Part shown: positions 1 to 21,131 of the stretch, piece after piece
How the letters are laid out: the number at the start of each line of letters is the position of its first letter
Numbering within the stretch: the stretch's first letter is position 1
The notes under the pieces: generated by a model
The model's database searches: none
Seen by the model: the letters and a program-made list of their open reading frames with translations, nothing else
Told to the model about the DNA's origin: nothing
IMG/VR virus record: IMGVR_UViG_2700989362_000003
From: a virus
Lineage: Duplodnaviria > Heunggongvirae > Uroviricota > Caudoviricetes
Reading direction: 5' to 3' (one strand)
DNA length: 37,091 nucleotides
Made by a program: the position numbers and the translations under genes

Positions 1-229
1 GGCAGCGGGCTTGTAATGGGTTAAGTGATAACAGATGTCTGGAAATATAGGGGCAAATCCAATCGTCGCCGTATTCCCGTATTAACAGAGACCGTAGCCC
101 GACGGGGAACTCCTTCTGCGCGAGTGTGCGGGAATAATCAAAAACGATGCACACCGGGGTTACCGGGTACACATATTTCATCATGCCAGCGAGTCCGGTT
201 CTGGCACGGAAGAAACCGGACGTTATGAT

Positions 230-655
230 TTAGTGCGGAAATATTTGTGTAGTGTTCTGTATGTTCTCAGTAAAGAGTAATGAATTATCAAAGGTATAGT
301 AATACCTTTTGTTTTCGTGGATATTTGTAATCCATCTGAAAACCCCTGCTGTAGCAAGATTTTTCCTGTATTCGTAAAATGATAACTCTCCTGATTTGAA
401 TCCTTTTAAGGTGGCTTCTATAAGGCATTTATTTTTTGAAAATCTTACATTTACAACCTTACCCTGTCCTTTTATTAAAACCGTATTATCGTTTTCAAGA
501 ACAAGATGAATATTCTCTGTGGCTAAATAGTAAATGTAATGTGAGACATTGTGACGTTTTAGTTCAGAATAAAACCAGTGATAGTTTAAATTATTTCGCA
601 CTTTATCGAATATTTGTTTAAAAATGGCAACCTGAGCCATTGTAGTACCTTCCAT
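230..655 (-). CDS. hypothetical moron protein, 141 aa, AT-rich (possibly DUF1398/YdfO-like; unverified)
   Basis: Intact 141-codon minus-strand ORF 42 bp downstream of the 77-aa ORF. GC content visibly lower than the flanking phage genes. No catalytic or binding motif recognised by eye. Family assignment is only from the typical gene order next to terminase in lambdoid prophages. Confidence 0.5.
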
Positions 656-697
656 GTGATATGAGGGGGCGTAGTCTGCACGATTATCTAAATTGCT

Positions 698-931
698 TCA
701 ATCTGGTCTAACCTGTTTTCTGAGCAATTCAGTAATGTCACTCTTTTCTTTGTTTGCTTCAGGCGAAACTCTTTTTTCTGAGCACAGTCTCCGGCGGCAG
801 GCTTCAATGACCCAGGCTGAGAAATTCCCGGACCCTTTTTGAACAAGAGCGATGTTAATTTGTTCAATCATTTGGTTAGGAAAGCGGATGTTGCGGGTTG
901 TTGTTCTGCGGGTTCTGTTCTTCGTTGACAT
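698..931 (-). CDS. small ribbon-helix-helix-like DNA-binding protein (YnfO/YlcI, DUF3950-type)
   Basis: 77-aa ORF with a basic N-terminal tail (MSTKNRTRRTTTRN) followed by NIRFPNQMIEQINIALVQKGSGNFSAWVIEACRRRL, which has the strand/helix/G-x-S/helix spacing of Arc/Mnt/CopG repressors. Sits divergently next to the terminase small subunit gene, as this family usually does. Confidence 0.6.
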   Translation of the reverse strand: MSTKNRTRRTTTRNIRFPNQMIEQINIALVQKGSGNFSAWVIEACRRRLCSEKRVSPEANKEKSDITELLRKQVRPD

Positions 932-1078
932 GAGGTTGCCCTGTATTCAGTGTCGCTGATTTGTATTGTCTGAAGTTGTTTTTACGTTAAGTTGATGCAG
1001 ATCAATTAATACGATACCTGCGTCATAATTGATTATTTGACGTGGTTTGATGGCGTAGATGCACGTTGTGACATGTAG

Positions 1079-1320
1079 ATGATAATTATTATCATTTTGC
1101 GGGTCCTTTCCGGCGATCCGACAGGTTACGGGGCGGAAGGCGCGCGGGTTTTCGCTATTTATGACAATTTTCCGGTTTAAGGCGTTTCCGTTCTTCTTCG
1201 CCGTAACCTAATGTTTTTATTTAAAACACCCCCTGAAAAGAAAGGAAACGACAGGTGCTGAAAACGGGCTTTTTGGCCTCTGTCGTTTCCTTTCTCTGTT
1301 TTTGTCCGTGGAATGAACAA
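1079..1320 (+). other. cos: cos site region: cosQ-proximal palindrome, cosN and cosB with the Nu1 binding elements
   Basis: Near-identity to the lambda genome end/start junction as I recall it (ACAGGTTACG / GGGCGG... / CGCGGGTTTTCGCTATTTATGA...TTTAAGGCGTTTCCGTTCTTCTTCG). The cosN 12-mer is at 1131..1142. A 17-bp perfect palindrome ATGATAATTATTATCAT is at 1079..1095. Nu1 starts at 1320. Confidence 0.8.
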
Positions 1321-1839
1321 TGGAAGTCAACAAAAAGCAGCTGGCTGACATTTTCGGTGCGAGTATCCGTACCATTCAGAACTGGCAGGAACAGGGAATG
1401 CCCGTTCTGCGAGGCGGTGGCAAGGGTAATGAGGTGCTTTATGACTCTGCCGCCGTTATAAGATGGTATGCCGAAAGGGATGCTGAAATTGAGAACGAAA
1501 AGCTGCGCCGGGAAGTTGAAGAACTGCGGCAGGCCAGCGAGACAGATCTCCAGCCAGGGACTATTGAGTACGAACGCCATCGACTTACGCGTGCGCAGGC
1601 CGACGCACAGGAGCTGAAAAATGCCAGAGACTCCGCTGAAGTGGTGGAAACCGCATTCTGTACTTTCGTGCTGTCGCGGATCGCAGGTGAAATTGCCAGT
1701 ATTCTCGACGGGATCCCCCTGTCGGTGCAGCGGCGTTTTCCGGAACTGGAAAACCGACATGTTGATTTCCTGAAACGGGATATCATCAAAGCCATGAACA
1801 AAGCAGCCGCGCTGGATGAACTGATACCGGGGTTGCTGA

Positions 1840-1865
<26 letters not shown>
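1320..1865 (+). CDS. nu1: terminase small subunit gpNu1
   Basis: 181-aa ORF MEVNKKQLADIFGASIRTIQNWQEQGMPV... matching lambda Nu1 in sequence, length and position immediately after cos. Confidence 0.95.
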
Positions 1866-14558: not shown

Positions 14559-15256
14559 TGCAGGATATCCGGCAGGAAACACTGAATGAATGCACCCGTG
14601 CGGAGCAGTCGGCCAGCGTGGTGCTCTGGGAAATCGATCTGACAGAGGTCGGTGGAGAACGTTATTTTTTCTGTAATGAGCAGAACGAAAAAGGTGAGCC
14701 GGTCACCTGGCAGGGGCGACAGTATCAGCCGTATCCCATTCAGGGGAGTGGTTTTGAACTGAATGGCAAAGGCACCAGTACGCGCCCCACGCTGATGGTT
14801 TCTAACCTGTACGGTATGGTCACCGGGATGGCGGAAGATCTACAGAGTCTGGTCGGCGGAACGGTGGTCCGGCGTAAGGTTTACGCCCGTTTTCTGGATG
14901 CGGTGAACTTCGTCAACGGAAACAGTGACGCCGATCCGGAGCAGGAGGTGATCAGCCGCTGGCGCATTGAGCAGTGCAGCGAACTGAGCGCGGTGAGTGC
15001 CTCTTTTGTACTGTCCACGCCGACGGAAACAGATGGCGCTGTTTTTCCGGGACGTATCATGCTGGCCAACACCTGCACCTGGACCTATCGCGGCGATGAG
15101 TGCGGTTATCACGGTCCGGCGGTCGCGGATGAATATGACCAGCCAACGTCCGACATCACGAAGGATAAATGCAGCAAATGCCTGAGTGGCTGTAAGTTTC
15201 GCAATAACGTCGGCAACTTTGGCGGCTTCCTTTCCATTAACAAACTTTCGCAGTAA
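14558..15256 (+). CDS. L: tail tip protein gpL (Fe-S cluster-binding Cys cluster at C-terminus)
   Basis: 232-aa ORF with the C-terminal cysteine pattern CTWTYRGDECGY...CSKCLSGCKF typical of lambda gpL. Confidence 0.95.
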   Translation: MQDIRQETLNECTRAEQSASVVLWEIDLTEVGGERYFFCNEQNEKGEPVTWQGRQYQPYPIQGSGFELNGKGTSTRPTLMVSNLYGMVTGMAEDLQSLVGGTVVRRKVYARFLDAVNFVNGNSDADPEQEVISRWRIEQCSELSAVSASFVLSTPTETDGAVFPGRIMLANTCTWTYRGDECGYHGPAVADEYDQPTSDITKDKCSKCLSGCKFRNNVGNFGGFLSINKLSQ

Positions 15257-15261
15257 ATCCC

Positions 15262-15982
15262 ATGACAGAGACAGAATCAGCGATTCTGGCGCACGCCCGG
15301 CGATGTGCGCCAGCGGAGTCGTGTGGCTTCGTGGTAAGAACGCCGGAGGGAGACAGGTATCTTCCCAGCGAGAATATCTCCGGTGAGCCGGAGGAACGGT
15401 TCCGGATGGCTCCGGAGGACTGGCTGCGGGCACAAATGCAGGGTGAGATTGTGGCGCTGGTCCACAGTCATCCCGGTGGTCTGCCCTGGCTGAGTGAGGC
15501 TGACCGGCGGCTGCAGGTGCAGAGTGATTTGCCGTGGTGGCTGGTCTGCCGGGGGGCGATTCACAAGTTCCGCTGTGTGCCGCATCTCACCGGGCGGCGC
15601 TTTGAGCACGGGGTGACGGACTGTTACACGCTGTTCCGGGATGCTTATCATCTGGCAGGGATTGAGATGCCGGATTTTCATCGCGGGGATGACTGGTGGC
15701 GTAACGGTCAGAATCTCTATCTTGACAATATGGAGGTGACGGGTTTTTACCGTGTCGCACTGACAGAGGCACAGCCGGGCGATGTGCTGCTGTGCTGTTT
15801 TGGTTCATCGGTGCCGAATCATGCCGCCATTTACTGCGGTGACGGCGGGCTGCTGCACCATATTCCTGAACAACTGAGCAAACGAGAGAGGTACACCGAC
15901 AAATGGCAGCGACGCACACACTCCCTCTGGCGTCACCGGGCATGGCGCGCATCTGCCTTTACGGGGATTTACAACGATTTGG
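15262..15982 (+). CDS. K: tail tip assembly protein gpK, copy 1, cut 7 codons short by the N junction (allele a)
   Basis: MTETESAILAHARRCAPAESCGFVV... with the JAMM/MPN motif EIVALVHSHPGG...SEAD and an NlpC/P60-like Cys/His region. The frame runs into the N at 15983 and then reads L sequence, so the 437-aa track ORF is a chimera. Confidence 0.85.
15903..15982 (+). CDS. I: gpI 5' fragment (26 codons) truncated at N junction
   Basis: ATG at 15903 gives MAATHTLPLASPGMARICLYGDLQRF, identical to the start of the full I copies at 17222 and 18587. Confidence 0.6.
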
Positions 15983-15983
15983 N
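15983..15983. other. N junction 1 (K/I 3' end joined to L interior)
   Basis: Single n. Sequence to its right restarts about 1.3 kb upstream in gene order, matching 14665 onward. Confidence 0.9.
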
Positions 15984-16575
15984 TTTTTTCTGTAATGAGC
16001 AGAACGAAAAAGGTGAGCCGGTCACCTGGCAGGGGCGACAGTATCAGCCGTATCCCATTCAGGGGAGTGGTTTTGAACTGAATGGCAAAGGCACCAGTAC
16101 GCGCCCCACGCTGATGGTTTCTAACCTGTACGGTATGGTCACCGGGATGGCGGAAGATCTACAGAGTCTGGTCGGCGGAACGGTGGTCCGGCGTAAGGTT
16201 TACGCCCGTTTTCTGGATGCGGTGAACTTCGTCAACGGAAACAGTGACGCCGATCCGGAGCAGGAGGTGATCAGCCGCTGGCGCATTGAGCAGTGCAGCG
16301 AACTGAGCGCGGTGAGTGCCTCTTTTGTACTGTCCACGCCGACGGAAACAGATGGCGCTGTTTTTCCGGGACGTATCATGCTGGCCAACACCTGCACCTG
16401 GACCTATCGCGGCGATGAGTGCGGTTATCACGGTCCGGCGGTCGCGGATGAATATGACCAGCCAACGTCCGACATCACGAAGGATAAATGCAGCAAATGC
16501 CTGAGTGGCTGTAAGTTTCGCAATAACGTCGGCAACTTTGGCGGCTTCCTTTCCATTAACAAACTTTCGCAGTAA
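15984..16575 (+). CDS. L: gpL 3' fragment, duplicate of 14665..15256
   Basis: Encodes FFCNEQNEKGEPVTWQGRQYQPYPIQG...KLSQ, identical at protein level to the first L copy. Confidence 0.85.
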
Positions 16576-16580
16576 ATCCC

Positions 16581-17324
16581 ATGACAGAGACAGAATCAGC
16601 GATTCTGGCGCACGCCCGGCGATGTGCTCCAGCGGAGTCGTGCGGCTTCGTGGTAAGAACGCCGGAGGGGGAAAGATATTTCCCCTGCGTGAATATCTCC
16701 GGTGAGCCGGAGGCGTATTTCCGTATGTCGCCGGAAGACTGGCTGCAGGCAGAGATGCAGGGTGAGATTGTGGCACTGGTCCACAGCCACCCCGGTGGTC
16801 TGCCCTGGCTGAGTGAGGCCGACCGGCGGCTGCAGGTGCAGAGTGATTTGCCGTGGTGGCTGGTCTGCCGGGGGGCGATTCACAAGTTCCGCTGTGTGCC
16901 ACATCTTACCGGGCGGCGCTTTGAGCACGGGGTGACGGACTGTTACACGCTGTTCCGGGATGCTTATCATCTGGCAGGGATTGAGATGCCGGATTTTCAT
17001 CGCGGGGATGACTGGTGGCGTAACGGTCAGAATCTCTATCTTGACAATATGGAGGTGACGGGTTTTTACCGTGTCGCACTGACAGAGGCACAGCCGGGCG
17101 ATGTGCTGCTGTGCTGTTTTGGTTCATCGGTGCCGAATCATGCCGCCATTTACTGCGGTGACGGCGGGCTGCTGCACCATATTCCTGAACAACTGAGCAA
17201 ACGAGAGAGGTACACCGACAAATGGCAGCGACGCACACACTCCCTCTGGCGTCACCGGGCATGGCGCGCATCTGCCTTTACGGGGATTTACAACGATTTG
17301 GTCGCCGCATCGACCTTCGTGTGA
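16581..17324 (+). CDS. K: tail tip assembly protein gpK, copy 2, full length 247 aa (allele b)
   Basis: Same architecture as copy 1 but a clustered patch of substitutions: ERYFPCVNISGEPEAYFRMSPEDWLQAEMQ versus DRYLPSENISGEPEERFRMAPEDWLRAQMQ. Confidence 0.9.
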   Translation: MTETESAILAHARRCAPAESCGFVVRTPEGERYFPCVNISGEPEAYFRMSPEDWLQAEMQGEIVALVHSHPGGLPWLSEADRRLQVQSDLPWWLVCRGAIHKFRCVPHLTGRRFEHGVTDCYTLFRDAYHLAGIEMPDFHRGDDWWRNGQNLYLDNMEVTGFYRVALTEAQPGDVLLCCFGSSVPNHAAIYCGDGGLLHHIPEQLSKRERYTDKWQRRTHSLWRHRAWRASAFTGIYNDLVAASTFV

Positions 17325-17863
17325 AAACGGGGGCTGAAGCCATCCGGGCACTGGCCACACAGCTCCCGGCGTTTCGTCAGAAACTGAGTGACGGCTGGTA
17401 TCAGGTGCGCATTGCCGGGCGTGATGCAGGTGAAACCGAATTGTCTGCCCGTCTTAATGAGCCGCTGGCAAATGGTGCAGTGATCCACATAGTACCGCGT
17501 CTGGTGGGAGCTAAAAGTGGCGGTGTGTTTCAGGCGGTGCTGGGGGCGGCTGTTATGGCGGTTGCTATATGGATGCCGGGGGTAGGAATTATGGCGAGTA
17601 ATCTGCTGTTTTCTCTCGGTGCCAGTATGACGCTTGGCGGTGTTGCACAGATGCTGGCACCGAAAGCCAGAACTCCCCGTACACAGACAACGGATAACGG
17701 TAAGCAGAACACGTATTTCTCGTCACTGGATAACATGGTTGCCCAGGGCAATGTTCTGCCCGTTCTGTACGGTGAAATGCGCGTGGGGTCACGTGTGGTT
17801 TCTCAGGAGATCAGCACGGCAGACGAAGGGGATGGTGGTCAGGTTGTGGTGATTGGTCGCTGA
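17222..17863 (+). CDS. I: tail tip assembly protein gpI, 213 aa
   Basis: MAATHTLPLASPGMARICLYGDLQRFGRRIDLRVKTGAEAIRALATQLPAFRQKLSDGWYQVRIAGRD... overlapping the K 3' end. The middle third differs from lambda I as I recall it. Confidence 0.9.
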   Translation: MAATHTLPLASPGMARICLYGDLQRFGRRIDLRVKTGAEAIRALATQLPAFRQKLSDGWYQVRIAGRDAGETELSARLNEPLANGAVIHIVPRLVGAKSGGVFQAVLGAAVMAVAIWMPGVGIMASNLLFSLGASMTLGGVAQMLAPKARTPRTQTTDNGKQNTYFSSLDNMVAQGNVLPVLYGEMRVGSRVVSQEISTADEGDGGQVVVIGR

Positions 17864-17882
17864 TGCAAAATGTTTTATGTGA

Positions 17883-17902
17883 AACCGCCTGCGGGCGGTT
17901 TT
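17883..17902 (+). terminator. stem-loop in the I-J intergenic region (possible attenuator)
   Basis: AACCGCCTGCGGGCGGTT hairpin followed by a T-rich stretch, 20 nt upstream of the J ribosome-binding site. A second copy lies at about 19248..19267. Confidence 0.35.
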
Positions 17903-17923
17903 GTCGTTTATGGAGCGTGAGGA

Positions 17924-18127
17924 ATGGGTAAAGGCAGCAGTAAGGGGCATACCCCGCGCGAAGCGAAGGACAACCTGAAATCCACGCAGTTGCTGAGTGT
18001 GATTGATGCCATCAGCGAAGGGCCGGTTGACGGTCCGGTGGATGGATTAAAAAGCGTGCTGCTGAACGGTACGCCGGTCCTGGACAGCGAGGGGAAGACA
18101 AACTTTTCCGGTGTTACGGTGGTGTTC
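17924..18127 (+). CDS. J: gpJ 5' fragment (68 codons) truncated at N junction
   Basis: MGKGSSKGHTPREAKDNLKSTQLLSVIDAISEGPVDGPVDGLKSVLLNGTPVLDSEGKTNFSGVTVVF, then the n at 18128. Confidence 0.85.
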
Positions 18128-18128
18128 N
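18128..18128. other. N junction 2 (J 5' end joined to K interior)
   Basis: Single n followed by K-internal sequence (EIVALVHSHPGG...). Confidence 0.9.
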
Positions 18129-18689
18129 GAGATTGTGGCACTGGTCCACAGCCACCCCGGTGGTCTGCCCTGGCTGAGTGAGGCCGACCGGCGGCTGCAG
18201 GTGCAGAGTGATTTGCCGTGGTGGCTGGTCTGCCGGGGGGCGATTCACAAGTTCCGCTGTGTGCCACATCTTACCGGGCGGCGCTTTGAGCACGGGGTGA
18301 CGGACTGTTACACGCTGTTCCGGGATGCTTACCATCTGGCGGGGATTGAGATGCCGGATTTTCATCGTGAGGATGACTGGTGGCGTCACGGTCAGAATCT
18401 CTATCTGGATAATCTGGAGGCCACAGGGCTGTATCAGGTGCCGTTGTCAGCGGCGCAGCCGGGCGATGTGCTGCTGTGCTGTTTTGGTTCATCGGTGCCG
18501 AATCATGCCGCCATTTACTGTGGTGACGGCGAGCTGCTGCACCATATTCCTGAACAACTGAGCAAACGAGAGAGGTATACCGACAAATGGCAGCGACGCA
18601 CACACTCCCTCTGGCGTCACCGGGCATGGCGCGCATCTGCCTTTACGGGGATTTACAACGATTTGGTCGCCGCATCGACCTTCGTGTGA
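18129..18689 (+). CDS. K: gpK 3' fragment, copy 3 (allele c, lambda-like)
   Basis: Encodes ...HREDDWWRHGQNLYLDNLEATGLYQVPLSAAQPGDVLL...GDGELLHH, distinct from copies 1 and 2 (HRGDDWWRNGQNLYLDNMEVTGFYRVALTEAQ...GDGGLLHH). Confidence 0.85.
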   Translation, partial: EIVALVHSHPGGLPWLSEADRRLQVQSDLPWWLVCRGAIHKFRCVPHLTGRRFEHGVTDCYTLFRDAYHLAGIEMPDFHREDDWWRHGQNLYLDNLEATGLYQVPLSAAQPGDVLLCCFGSSVPNHAAIYCGDGELLHHIPEQLSKRERYTDKWQRRTHSLWRHRAWRASAFTGIYNDLVAASTFV

Positions 18690-19228
18690 AAACGGGGGCT
18701 GAAGCCATCCGGGCACTGGCCACACAGCTCCCGGCGTTTCGTCAGAAACTGAGTGACGGCTGGTATCAGGTGCGCATTGCCGGGCGTGATGCAGGTGAAA
18801 CCGAATTGTCTGCCCGTCTTAATGAGCCGCTGGCAAATGGTGCAGTGATCCACATAGTACCGCGTCTGGTGGGAGCTAAAAGTGGCGGTGTGTTTCAGGC
18901 GGTGCTGGGGGCGGCTGTTATGGCGGTTGCTATATGGATGCCGGGGGTAGGAATTATGGCGAGTAATCTGCTGTTTTCTCTCGGTGCCAGTATGACGCTT
19001 GGCGGTGTTGCACAGATGCTGGCACCGAAAGCCAGAACTCCCCGTACACAGACAACGGATAACGGTAAGCAGAACACCTATTTCTCCTCACTGGATAACA
19101 TGGTTGCCCAGGGCAATGTTCTGCCCGTTCTGTACGGTGAAATGCGCGTGGGGTCACGTGTGGTTTCTCAGGAGATCAGCACGGCAGACGAAGGGGATGG
19201 GGGTCAGGTTGTGGTGATTGGTCGCTGA
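18587..19228 (+). CDS. I: tail tip assembly protein gpI, second full copy
   Basis: 213-aa ORF with the same protein as 17222..17863 and only silent or near-silent nucleotide differences. Confidence 0.9.
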   Translation: MAATHTLPLASPGMARICLYGDLQRFGRRIDLRVKTGAEAIRALATQLPAFRQKLSDGWYQVRIAGRDAGETELSARLNEPLANGAVIHIVPRLVGAKSGGVFQAVLGAAVMAVAIWMPGVGIMASNLLFSLGASMTLGGVAQMLAPKARTPRTQTTDNGKQNTYFSSLDNMVAQGNVLPVLYGEMRVGSRVVSQEISTADEGDGGQVVVIGR

Positions 19229-19288
19229 TGCAAAATGTTTTATGTGAAACCGCCTGCGGGCGGTTTTGTCGTTTATGGAGCGTGAGGA

Positions 19289-21131
19289 ATGGGTAAAGGC
19301 AGCAGTAAGGGGCATACCCCGCGCGAAGCGAAGGACAACCTGAAATCCACGCAGTTGCTGAGTGTGATTGATGCCATCAGCGAAGGGCCGGTTGACGGTC
19401 CGGTGGATGGATTAAAAAGCGTGCTGCTGAACGGTACGCCGGTCCTGGACAGCGAGGGGAAGACAAACTTTTCCGGTGTTACGGTGGTGTTCCGTGCAGG
19501 TGAGCAGGAGCAGACACCGCCGGAGGGTTTTGAATCCTCCGGCTCCGAGACGGTGCTGGGTACGGAAGTGAAATATGACACGCCGATCACCCGGACCATC
19601 ACGTCGGCAAACATCGACCGTCTGCGCCTGACCTTCGGTGTGCAGGCACTGGTGGAAACCACCTCAAAGGGTGACCGGAATCCGTCGGAAGTCCGCCTGC
19701 TGGTTCAGATACAGCGTAACGGTGGCTGGGTGACGGAAAAAGACATCACCATTAAGGGCAAAACCACCTCGCAGTATCTGGCCTCGGTGGTGGTGGATAA
19801 CCTGCCGCCGCGCCCGTTTAATATCCGGATGCGCAGAATGACGCCGGACAGCACCACAGACCAGCTGCAGAACAAAACGCTCTGGTCGTCATACACCGAA
19901 ATCATCGATGTGAAACAGTGCTACCCGAACACGGCGCTGGTCGGCGTGCAGGTGGATTCAGAGCAGTTCGGTAACCAGCAGGTGAGTCGCAATTATCATC
20001 TTCGCGGGCGCATTCTGCAGGTGCCGTCGAACTATAATCCGCAGACGCGGCAATACAGCGGTATCTGGGACGGAACGTTAAAACCGGCATACAGCAACAA
20101 CATGGCCTGGTGTCTGTGGGACATGCTCACTCATCCGCGCTACGGCATGGGGAAACGTCTTGGTGCGGCAGATGTGGATAAATGGGCGCTGTATGTCATC
20201 GGCCAGTACTGCGACCAGTCAGTGACGGACGGATTTGGCGGCACGGAGCCGCGCATCACCTGTAACTCTTACCTGACCACACAGCGTAAGGCGTGGGATG
20301 TTCTCAGTGATTTCTGCTCGGCGATGCGCTGTATGCCGGTATGGAACGGACAGATGCTGACGTTCGTGCAGGACCGACCGTCGGATAAGGTGTGGACCTA
20401 TAACCGCAGTAATGTGGTGATGCCGGACGATGGCGCGCCGTTCCGCTACAGCTTCAGCGCCCTGAAGGACCGCCATAATGCCGTTGAGGTGAACTGGATT
20501 GACCCAGATAACGGCTGGGAGACGGCGACAGAGCTTGTGGAGGATACGCAGGCCATTGCCCGTTACGGTCGTAATGTCACGAAGATGGATGCCTTTGGCT
20601 GTACCAGCCGGGGGCAGGCACACCGAGCCGGGCTGTGGCTGATTAAAACGGAACTGCTGGAAACGCAGACCGTGGACTTCAGCGTGGGCGCAGAAGGGCT
20701 TCGCCATGTACCGGGTGATGTCATTGAAATCTGCGATGATGATTATGCCGGTATCAGCACCGGTGGTCGCGTACTGGCGGTGAACAGCCAGACCCGGACG
20801 CTGACGCTCGACCGTGAAATCACGCTGCCGTCCTCCGGTACCACGCTGATAAGCCTGGTTGACGGAAGTGGCAATCCGGTCAGCGTGGAGGTCCAGTCCG
20901 TCACCGACGGCGTGAAGGTGAAAGTGAGCCGGGTTCCTGACGGCGTTGCAGAATACAGCGTGTGGGGGCTGAAGCTGCCGACGCTGCGCCAGCGTCTGTT
21001 CCGCTGCGTGAGTATCCGTGAGAACGACGACGGCACGTATGCCATCACCGCCGTGCAGCATGTGCCGGAAAAAGAGGCCATCGTGGATAACGGGGCACAC
21101 TTTGACGGTGACCGGCGCGGCACGGTGAATG
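19289..21131 (+). CDS. J: central tail fiber/host specificity protein gpJ, 5' 614 codons, truncated at N junction
   Basis: Starts MGKGSSKGHTPREAKDNLK..., co-linear with the lambda J N-terminal and central regions up to ...[11 protein letters not shown], then the n at 21132. Confidence 0.9.

Follow-up and report, generated by a model that had tools for sequence, protein, structure and literature searches.

A DUF3950 gene and a DUF1398 gene beside cos in a lambda-like phage: probably separate accessory genes under host regulators rather than one coupled module

Two small genes of the DUF3950 (ynfO/ylcI) and DUF1398 (ydfO/ybcV) families are found near the packaging genes of several lambdoid phages and prophages of Escherichia coli. 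In the Qin prophage of strain K-12 they follow one another in the order gnsB, ydfO (minus strand), ynfO (minus strand) and nohA (plus strand), and the same order, strands and spacing are observed in the IMG/VR record IMGVR_UViG_2700989362_000003, a stretch of 37,091 nucleotides (hereafter the window) from a lambda-like phage of the Caudoviricetes, in which a lambda-type cos region is followed by Nu1 (1320..1865, assigned by homology to lambda) and the terminase gene A. The resemblance to Qin extends to the proteins, the ynfO-type product having 77 amino acids (aa) and 97% identity and the DUF1398 product 136 aa and 76% identity, and to the FNR, Fur and PdhR boxes around the genes, which are identical. 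Unlike Qin, which is a decayed prophage, the window carries the pair beside lambda-like packaging and structural genes that seem to be complete, and its DUF1398 variant is not that of Qin but is 100% identical to the one present in phages PhiR49_1, ev099, Kati and Chlobot.

Phage lambda and the DLP12 prophage also have both families, between bor and cos, and their DNA is identical to that of the window from the start of the DUF3950 gene to cos. The lambda copies are lambdap78, annotated with an N-terminal extension that is not conserved, and an unannotated DUF3950 open reading frame (ORF) of 64 aa, while the DLP12 genes are known as ybcV-ybcW-ylcI. In contrast to the compact arrangement of the window, the two genes of lambda and DLP12 are separated by an insertion of about 530 bp with the plus-strand gene ybcW/lambdap79, and the tail of their DUF3950 protein differs (64 aa, ending in ...KSDEE). 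A further likeness is to the lambdoid morons, such as lambda bor and lom, with which the locus shares what would be an independent transcription unit in the late region, an atypical composition, sharp mosaic boundaries and an optional presence. Morons are said to have been described in phages HK97 and HK022 by Juhala et al. in 2000. Unlike the lambdoid morons, the unit considered here ends in a 3' hairpin that lacks a U-tract.

The pair is already known, as widespread, uncharacterised genes of lambdoid phages. An initial annotation of this DNA had proposed the two families, had judged the genes to be conserved but uncharacterised rather than new, and had named the cryptic-prophage neighbourhood of K-12 as their counterpart; all three statements were right, the ydfO-ynfO-nohA segment showing the same arrangement. 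The 77-aa protein matches DUF3950 of Pfam (PF13132; E=2e-20, 72.8 bits against a cut-off of 25), the NCBIfam model NF041551 (YlcI_YnfO_N; 35.2 bits, cut-off 30) and PHROG 949 (E=6e-33). The larger protein matches DUF1398 (PF07166; E=3e-43, 147 bits against a cut-off of 22) over model positions 1-119 of 119, and the nuclear magnetic resonance (NMR) structure of E. coli YdfO (PDB 2hh8; E=1e-69). Two further matches, to the Pfam family HEPN_AbiA_CTD (E=0.014, below the cut-off) and to an NCBIfam anthranilate synthase model (17 bits, the cut-off being 576), were attributed to chance. Of 5426 complete E. coli genomes, 3800 (about 70%) contain DNA of the pair, at up to 12 places per genome, and by tblastn 155 phage records matched DUF3950 and 43 matched DUF1398. 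A phmmer search of 1.84 billion representatives returned only 189 matches, which indicates a narrow enterobacterial subfamily; an alignment-based homologue search yielded close relatives and nothing more distant. In the literature that was found, neither family has an established function.

The placement of the two ORFs to the left of cos, on the minus strand and 42 bp apart, was recovered exactly as first annotated. The DUF3950 gene occupies 698..931 (minus strand, ATG start), as supported by Pfam, NCBIfam and the conservation of its core. The longest DUF1398 ORF, also with an ATG start, spans 230..655 on the minus strand and encodes 141 aa; the true start is probably the internal ATG at 640, giving a gene at 230..640 and a protein of 136 aa, since it is preceded, at a distance of 7 nt, by a GGAAGG Shine-Dalgarno sequence and the same start is used in the GenBank and RefSeq records of identical genes. 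The intergenic gap is 42 bp with the start at 655 and 57 bp with the start at 640. The AT-richness that had been noticed in the second gene is real, the GC content being 0.30-0.35 over 300..700 and 0.51-0.59 in the terminase and structural genes. The ratio of nonsynonymous to synonymous substitution rates (dN/dS) is 0.09 for DUF3950 residues 1-50, compared with a Shiga toxin (Stx) phage copy, and 0.2-0.35 for DUF1398, compared with the copies in Qin, DLP12 and lambda. Purifying selection thus acts on both, which shows them to be genuine genes rather than chance ORFs.

We consider that the pair is best explained as two separately regulated accessory genes of lambdoid phages, of the moron type and expressed in the lysogen, and not as one coupled module, and give this reading a probability of about 0.55. 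Both genes point in the direction opposite to S-R-Rz and to Nu1-A; since they would be transcribed against the late operon, they would need promoters of their own, and expression from the prophage would be most likely. Their distribution is independent. In Stx phages DUF3950 adjoins the HNH-TerS-TerL genes and DUF1398 is absent, and one E. coli prophage has the order iss-ylcI-nohD, again without DUF1398; the DUF3950 gene thus keeps its place beside cos or the terminase genes where the other is missing. Conversely, no DUF3950 gene lies upstream of four stand-alone chromosomal homologues of DUF1398, namely ycgX (44% identity), which adjoins bluR, a homologue in Raoultella, and two more distant ones, of which the first neighbours yqeI/yqeJ-like genes and the second is flanked by an aryl-polyene cluster and by genes for formate dehydrogenase. 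Each gene is therefore found by itself, and the obligatory co-occurrence expected of a type II toxin-antitoxin (TA) system is not observed; the two genes mostly do not behave as one coupled module.

The boundaries of the DUF1398 gene point in the same direction. Alignment of the compact arrangement (window, Qin) with the split one (lambda, DLP12) shows that homology begins exactly at a GGT(C/T)AGACC box that precedes the ATG of DUF1398 by about 75 nt, and that on the 3' side homology with Qin stops about 20 nt beyond a conserved hairpin. With its limits at the box and at the hairpin, the DUF1398 gene is, as judged from these alignments, a self-contained and optional AT-rich cassette of about 190..716, and by the same comparison the DUF3950 gene belongs to a conserved cos-proximal segment. 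The cassette shows what is characteristic of a moron, namely an atypical base composition, sharp boundaries (about 716 and about 190) and presence or absence between collinear genomes. Its 5' end (683..716, minus strand), recognised by the promoter scan and the homology boundary, holds a PdhR-type box, ATCTGGTCTAACCTGTT, at 700..716, overlapping the DUF3950 stop codon, and a sigma-70-like site, TAGACC-16-GATAAT. Its 3' boundary is marked by a conserved stem-loop at 193..221 (minus strand), an inverted repeat lying 9 nt past the DUF1398 stop codon, whose stem is preserved in a Qin-like copy by one compensatory change; it has no U-tract and its fold energy is unexceptional (z=-1.0), and it may serve either to terminate transcription or to stabilise the RNA. 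The second gene could accordingly be described as a cassette inserted downstream of the first, which would bring its own weak promoter, PdhR-type box and 3' hairpin.

Regulation of the homologous K-12 cassettes has been documented. Genomic SELEX peaks of PdhR were found over the homologous boxes at ybcV/ybcW and between ynfO and ydfO, and a pdhR mutant showed a 10-fold decrease in ybcV mRNA (PMC7660256). According to supplementary data of Myers et al. (PMC3688515), the sigma-70 occupancy of ybcV/ybcW increases from 82 to 434 under anaerobic conditions, and H-NS covers this AT-rich region. The split arrangement of DLP12 and lambda, but not the window, has a second predicted FNR site, ATGATTTATGTCAA, at ybcV/ybcW, which in published chromatin immunoprecipitation (ChIP) data is bound by FNR solely in an hns/stpA mutant, so that H-NS appears to silence this AT-rich cassette.

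The DUF3950 gene is preceded by sites for other host regulators. The initial annotation had regarded the palindromes at 940..1100 as possible operators of the small protein itself; they turn out to be an FNR box and a Fur box, and binding of the host proteins to identical K-12 sequences has been published. The perfect FNR box TTGATGCAGATCAA (992..1005, unstranded) is the sole match in the window, has its centre 67.5 bp before the start codon of the DUF3950 gene, and is kept in lambda-type loci (110 of 134 fetched loci), with a box-to-ATG spacing of 61 nt that is identical wherever compared. The box would suit a class II, anaerobically activated promoter: in a candidate promoter at 957..970 (minus strand), proposed from the spacing of the sequence elements, a -10 hexamer GACAAT lies at 970..965, and a putative start near 957-958 would put the centre of the box (998.5) at -40.5 or -41.5, a geometry suggestive of FNR activation of the DUF3950 gene. 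Grainger et al. reported, from ChIP-chip and electrophoretic mobility shift assays, that FNR binds the identical 24-mer at both nohB and nohA/ydfO (PMC1802558), and in the ChIP-seq supplement of Myers et al. FNR peaks are present at ylcI/nohB and nohA/ynfO in every data set, with a motif score of 16.68 bits, the highest among the matches listed (PMC3688515). About 85 bp further upstream, relative to the DUF3950 gene, lies the Fur box (1079..1095, unstranded), an inverted repeat forming the palindrome ATGATAAT-T-ATTATCAT, whose core GATAATTATTATC at 1081..1093 occurs once in the window against an expectation of 0.03. At the homologous position Chen et al. described Fur clusters of 25.3 bits at nohB and of 22.3 bits at nohA, the latter with a gel shift (PMC2189734). 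The box overlaps a promoter-like site called by the promoter scan at 1068..1095 (plus strand), which points through cos towards Nu1. Both boxes lie between the DUF3950 gene and cosQ/cosN, lambda has both, and the K-12 copies at nohA/ynfO and nohB/ylcI rank among the best FNR and Fur sites of that genome. To our knowledge, a role of these boxes near cos in the biology of the phage has never been discussed. The wiring to the host would then consist of FNR and Fur near ynfO, and of PdhR, with H-NS, at ydfO.

The product of the DUF3950 gene is a small basic protein made of a near-invariant core (residues 1-50), including a basic N-terminal tail, and a C-terminal tail (residues 51-77) that varies between phages. 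The core would most likely be a dimeric DNA binder of the ribbon-helix-helix (RHH) type, a fold that we regard as quite probable. In size the protein resembles Arc, Mnt, CopG and MetJ; like them it has a basic arm at the N-terminus, the strand motif N-[IL]-R-[FW]-P and a helix-Gly-turn-helix pattern in which a serine caps helix B, and its two predicted helices are of suitable length. The best hhalign comparisons were those with Arc (E=0.022), NikR (0.042) and RelB (0.13), all in the correct register, whereas non-RHH controls gave 0.26-0.38; in the Arc alignment NIRFP is paired with NLRWP, G33 with G30 and S38 with S35. A weak match to a HicB-like C-terminal region (E=0.29) was also obtained. 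Unlike these repressors, the DUF3950 protein has neither a significant sequence or profile match nor an identified operator; upstream DNA of lambda-type and Stx-type DUF3950 copies was compared and no common operator was found. The Arc/Mnt-like call made at the outset agrees with the motif register and with the predicted helices, but no search reached significance. As a best guess, YnfO is a transcription regulator.

The DUF1398 protein is soluble, basic (isoelectric point 9.4) and rich in aromatic residues, and contains an internally duplicated alpha2-beta3 unit. It has the fold of the solved member YdfO, which has no relative among solved structures. Several observations on the K-12 homologues have been reported: ydfO was up 116-fold under ionic liquid (PMC4077768) and changes upon DicC induction, ybcV was raised in a strain tolerant of sabinene, the glycogen content is altered by a ybcV expression clone, and the ybcW and ylcI transcripts are convergent and overlapping. 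A role of YdfO in resistance to oxidative stress, also stated in PMC4077768, was rejected, since the cited work of Wang et al. 2010 (PMC3105296) names YfdK, YfdO and YfdS of CPS-53 and never ydfO; the claim is a mix-up of gene names with YfdO and could spread into annotation. Our guess is that YdfO is a non-toxic binder of a protein, a small ligand or a nucleic acid that is made under anaerobic or metabolic stress. The two genes may be of benefit to the host.

Several points weigh against separately regulated, lysogen-expressed genes. On the side of regulation, the consensus promoter scan called no promoter upstream of 931 on the minus strand. No FNR-dependent change in K-12 expression was seen by Grainger et al. 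(PMC1802558), where the fusion in the nohA direction alone was assayed and gave a marginal response, nor in the data of Myers et al., obtained in glucose minimal medium; FNR may bind without transcriptional effect or serve another purpose. The PdhR box agrees with the consensus at 10 of 14 positions and its core motif is unenriched in the window, so that the PdhR argument rests on homology; the expression data come from the K-12 homologues. As regards the fold, the AlphaFold2 single-chain model of the DUF3950 protein is of low quality, with helices at 19-31 and 37-50, no strand and a predicted local distance difference test (pLDDT) value of 55, and no significant RHH match was reached in the PDB profile search, in Foldseek against PDB, in hhalign, or in Pfam, PHROG and NCBIfam at E<=10. 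Finally, where the DUF3950 protein has the 77-aa tail type, DUF1398 follows immediately downstream in 79 of 80 loci, and read-through co-transcription and a functional link are possible in that arrangement.

A more ambitious proposal, which we entertain as a tentative possibility, is that the locus forms a hub sensing host physiology, in which the prophage would read oxygen, iron and pyruvate through host regulators and switch on YnfO and an orphan-fold effector, YdfO; YnfO would then control either host genes or the promoter that reads across cos to the terminase genes. It is suggested by the position of a top-scoring FNR site and of one of the strongest Fur sites reported for K-12 within the roughly 200 bp between cos and the RHH-like gene, with the cassette carrying the PdhR box just beyond.

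It has also to be considered that the DUF3950 protein acts at the cos and terminase end, either on the Fur-regulated promoter directed into Nu1 and A or near cosQ, and that DUF1398 is an unrelated passenger. The DUF3950 gene always adjoins, and diverges from, the packaging genes, in lambda Nu1-A and in Stx HNH-TerS-TerL systems alike, it remains there in the absence of DUF1398, and about 150 bp upstream of it is the promoter-like site on the plus strand with which the Fur palindrome overlaps. Nevertheless, the lambda-type and Stx-type upstream DNAs share no operator-like motif, the gene is antisense to late transcription, the phase in which packaging occurs, and lambda can form plaques without the part of its right end that lies beyond Rz; we hold a function at the cos end to be unlikely.

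Somewhat more doubtful is that one or both genes are cargo for anti-phage defence, superinfection exclusion or counter-defence. Cargo between lysis and packaging genes is common in temperate phages, and the siting of the pair in such a region, suggested by the initial annotation, fits the neighbourhood data of relatives, which hold bor/iss, KilA-N genes and porin genes in this variable place; the orientation and base composition are moron-like, and a YlcI/YnfO protein has been listed among the accessory genes of capsid-forming phage-inducible chromosomal islands (PICIs). Searches of PADLOC-DB, however, gave no significant match, the sole one being Csx23 at chance level (E=0.025, 12.6 bits) and none being obtained for the 77-aa protein; no defence phenotype was found in the literature, and stand-alone chromosomal DUF1398 homologues reside in ordinary metabolic neighbourhoods.

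The initial annotation had raised the idea of a TA or regulator-effector module. In such an operon the RHH protein would act as repressor and would also neutralise or control the DUF1398 product. The layout, with a larger gene of unassigned role behind a small RHH-like one on the same strand, is indeed like that of type II TA systems; no terminator was found between the genes, the pair is adjacent in nearly all loci of the 77-aa tail type, and the HicB-like family to which the small protein is weakly similar is one of antitoxins. This reading fails on the independent distribution of the genes, which holds in both directions, and on the separate boundaries and promoter-like site of the DUF1398 cassette: the 57-nt gap contains both that site and the mosaic joint at which recombination has occurred. 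Moreover, YdfO was produced for the NMR structure 2hh8 and the ybcV clone of the ASKA expression library is viable with a glycogen phenotype only, so that strong toxicity is unlikely, and PADLOC again gives no significant match. A coupled operon of this kind is improbable, and the pair should not be treated as a TA module, nor the nearby palindromes, which are FNR and Fur sites, as RHH operators. A programmed read-through fusion was likewise considered, as the two ORFs of the window share one reading frame (TGA plus 14 codons), and was rejected, since the DUF3950-DUF1398 spacing is 59, 60, 61 or 62 nt across 80 related loci, which puts many copies out of frame. A protein cluster of 233 aa with 761 members (P0014) corresponds to a DUF3950-DUF1398 'fusion' in which TGA is read as W, and is most likely a gene-calling artefact of an alternative genetic code.

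That DUF1398 is a virion or envelope component is scarcely credible, being backed by labels only ('head protein' in PHROG 413 and RefSeq, 'putative envelope protein' for lambdap78), while the gene runs antisense to the late operon, the protein begins with a helix inside a confidently folded domain and not with a signal peptide, YdfO is soluble and was solved by NMR, ycgX and the homologues at loci L137 and L139 lie outside prophages, and the 177-aa lambdap78 model adds the unconserved N-terminal extension from a GTG start.

Other features of the window and of the databases were noted. By alignment with lambda and from the known layout of its cos, we take cosQ to be at 1100..1106 and the cohesive end at about 1130..1141. 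The 12-nt cohesive end at 1130-1141, GGGCGGAAGGCG, differs from that of lambda, GGGCGGCGACCT, at 6 of 12 positions, with lambda-like cosQ and cosB flanks; the variant was seen in 7 fetched IMG/VR loci, whereas the phage collection contained no exact copy of it, the best match reaching 96.3%. Just upstream of Nu1, at 1239-1295, lies a 26-nt inverted repeat that presumably represents the cosB R2/R1 terminase-binding sites, by comparison with lambda; an Rfam scan of 1..1400 gave just chance microRNA matches, which fall on this repeat. The tail-gene region 14665-19492, equivalent to lambda L/K/I, contains tandem duplications of about 1.3 kb (14665-15982 and 15984-17301, 98.0% alike; 16764-18127 and 18129-19492, 97.8%), which are either a true duplication of tail-tip genes or an assembly artefact. 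Right-end DNA of lambda also occurs in assemblies of unrelated organisms, among them Pedobacter, Cohnella, Brevibacillus, Kitasatospora, Flavobacterium, an Arcanobacterium 'plasmid' and others (loci L012-L033 and L044-L047), the contigs measuring about 3.5 kb or about 48.4 kb. They have the appearance of lambda control or spike-in DNA rather than of true genes of those taxa, and the same source explains many contigs of about 3.5 kb in the European Nucleotide Archive and the 'Staphylococcus aureus' YlcI entries.

Of what has been written about these proteins, the 'head protein' and 'envelope protein' labels are unsupported, and the sole published function of YdfO is an error of names. The FNR site is correctly placed to drive ynfO/ylcI, and a host-physiology sensing hub at this position, if true, would be a layer of lambda biology that nobody has described. 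Few uncharacterised prophage genes of E. coli are as widespread as these two, which lambda itself carries, and any function found for them would apply very broadly.

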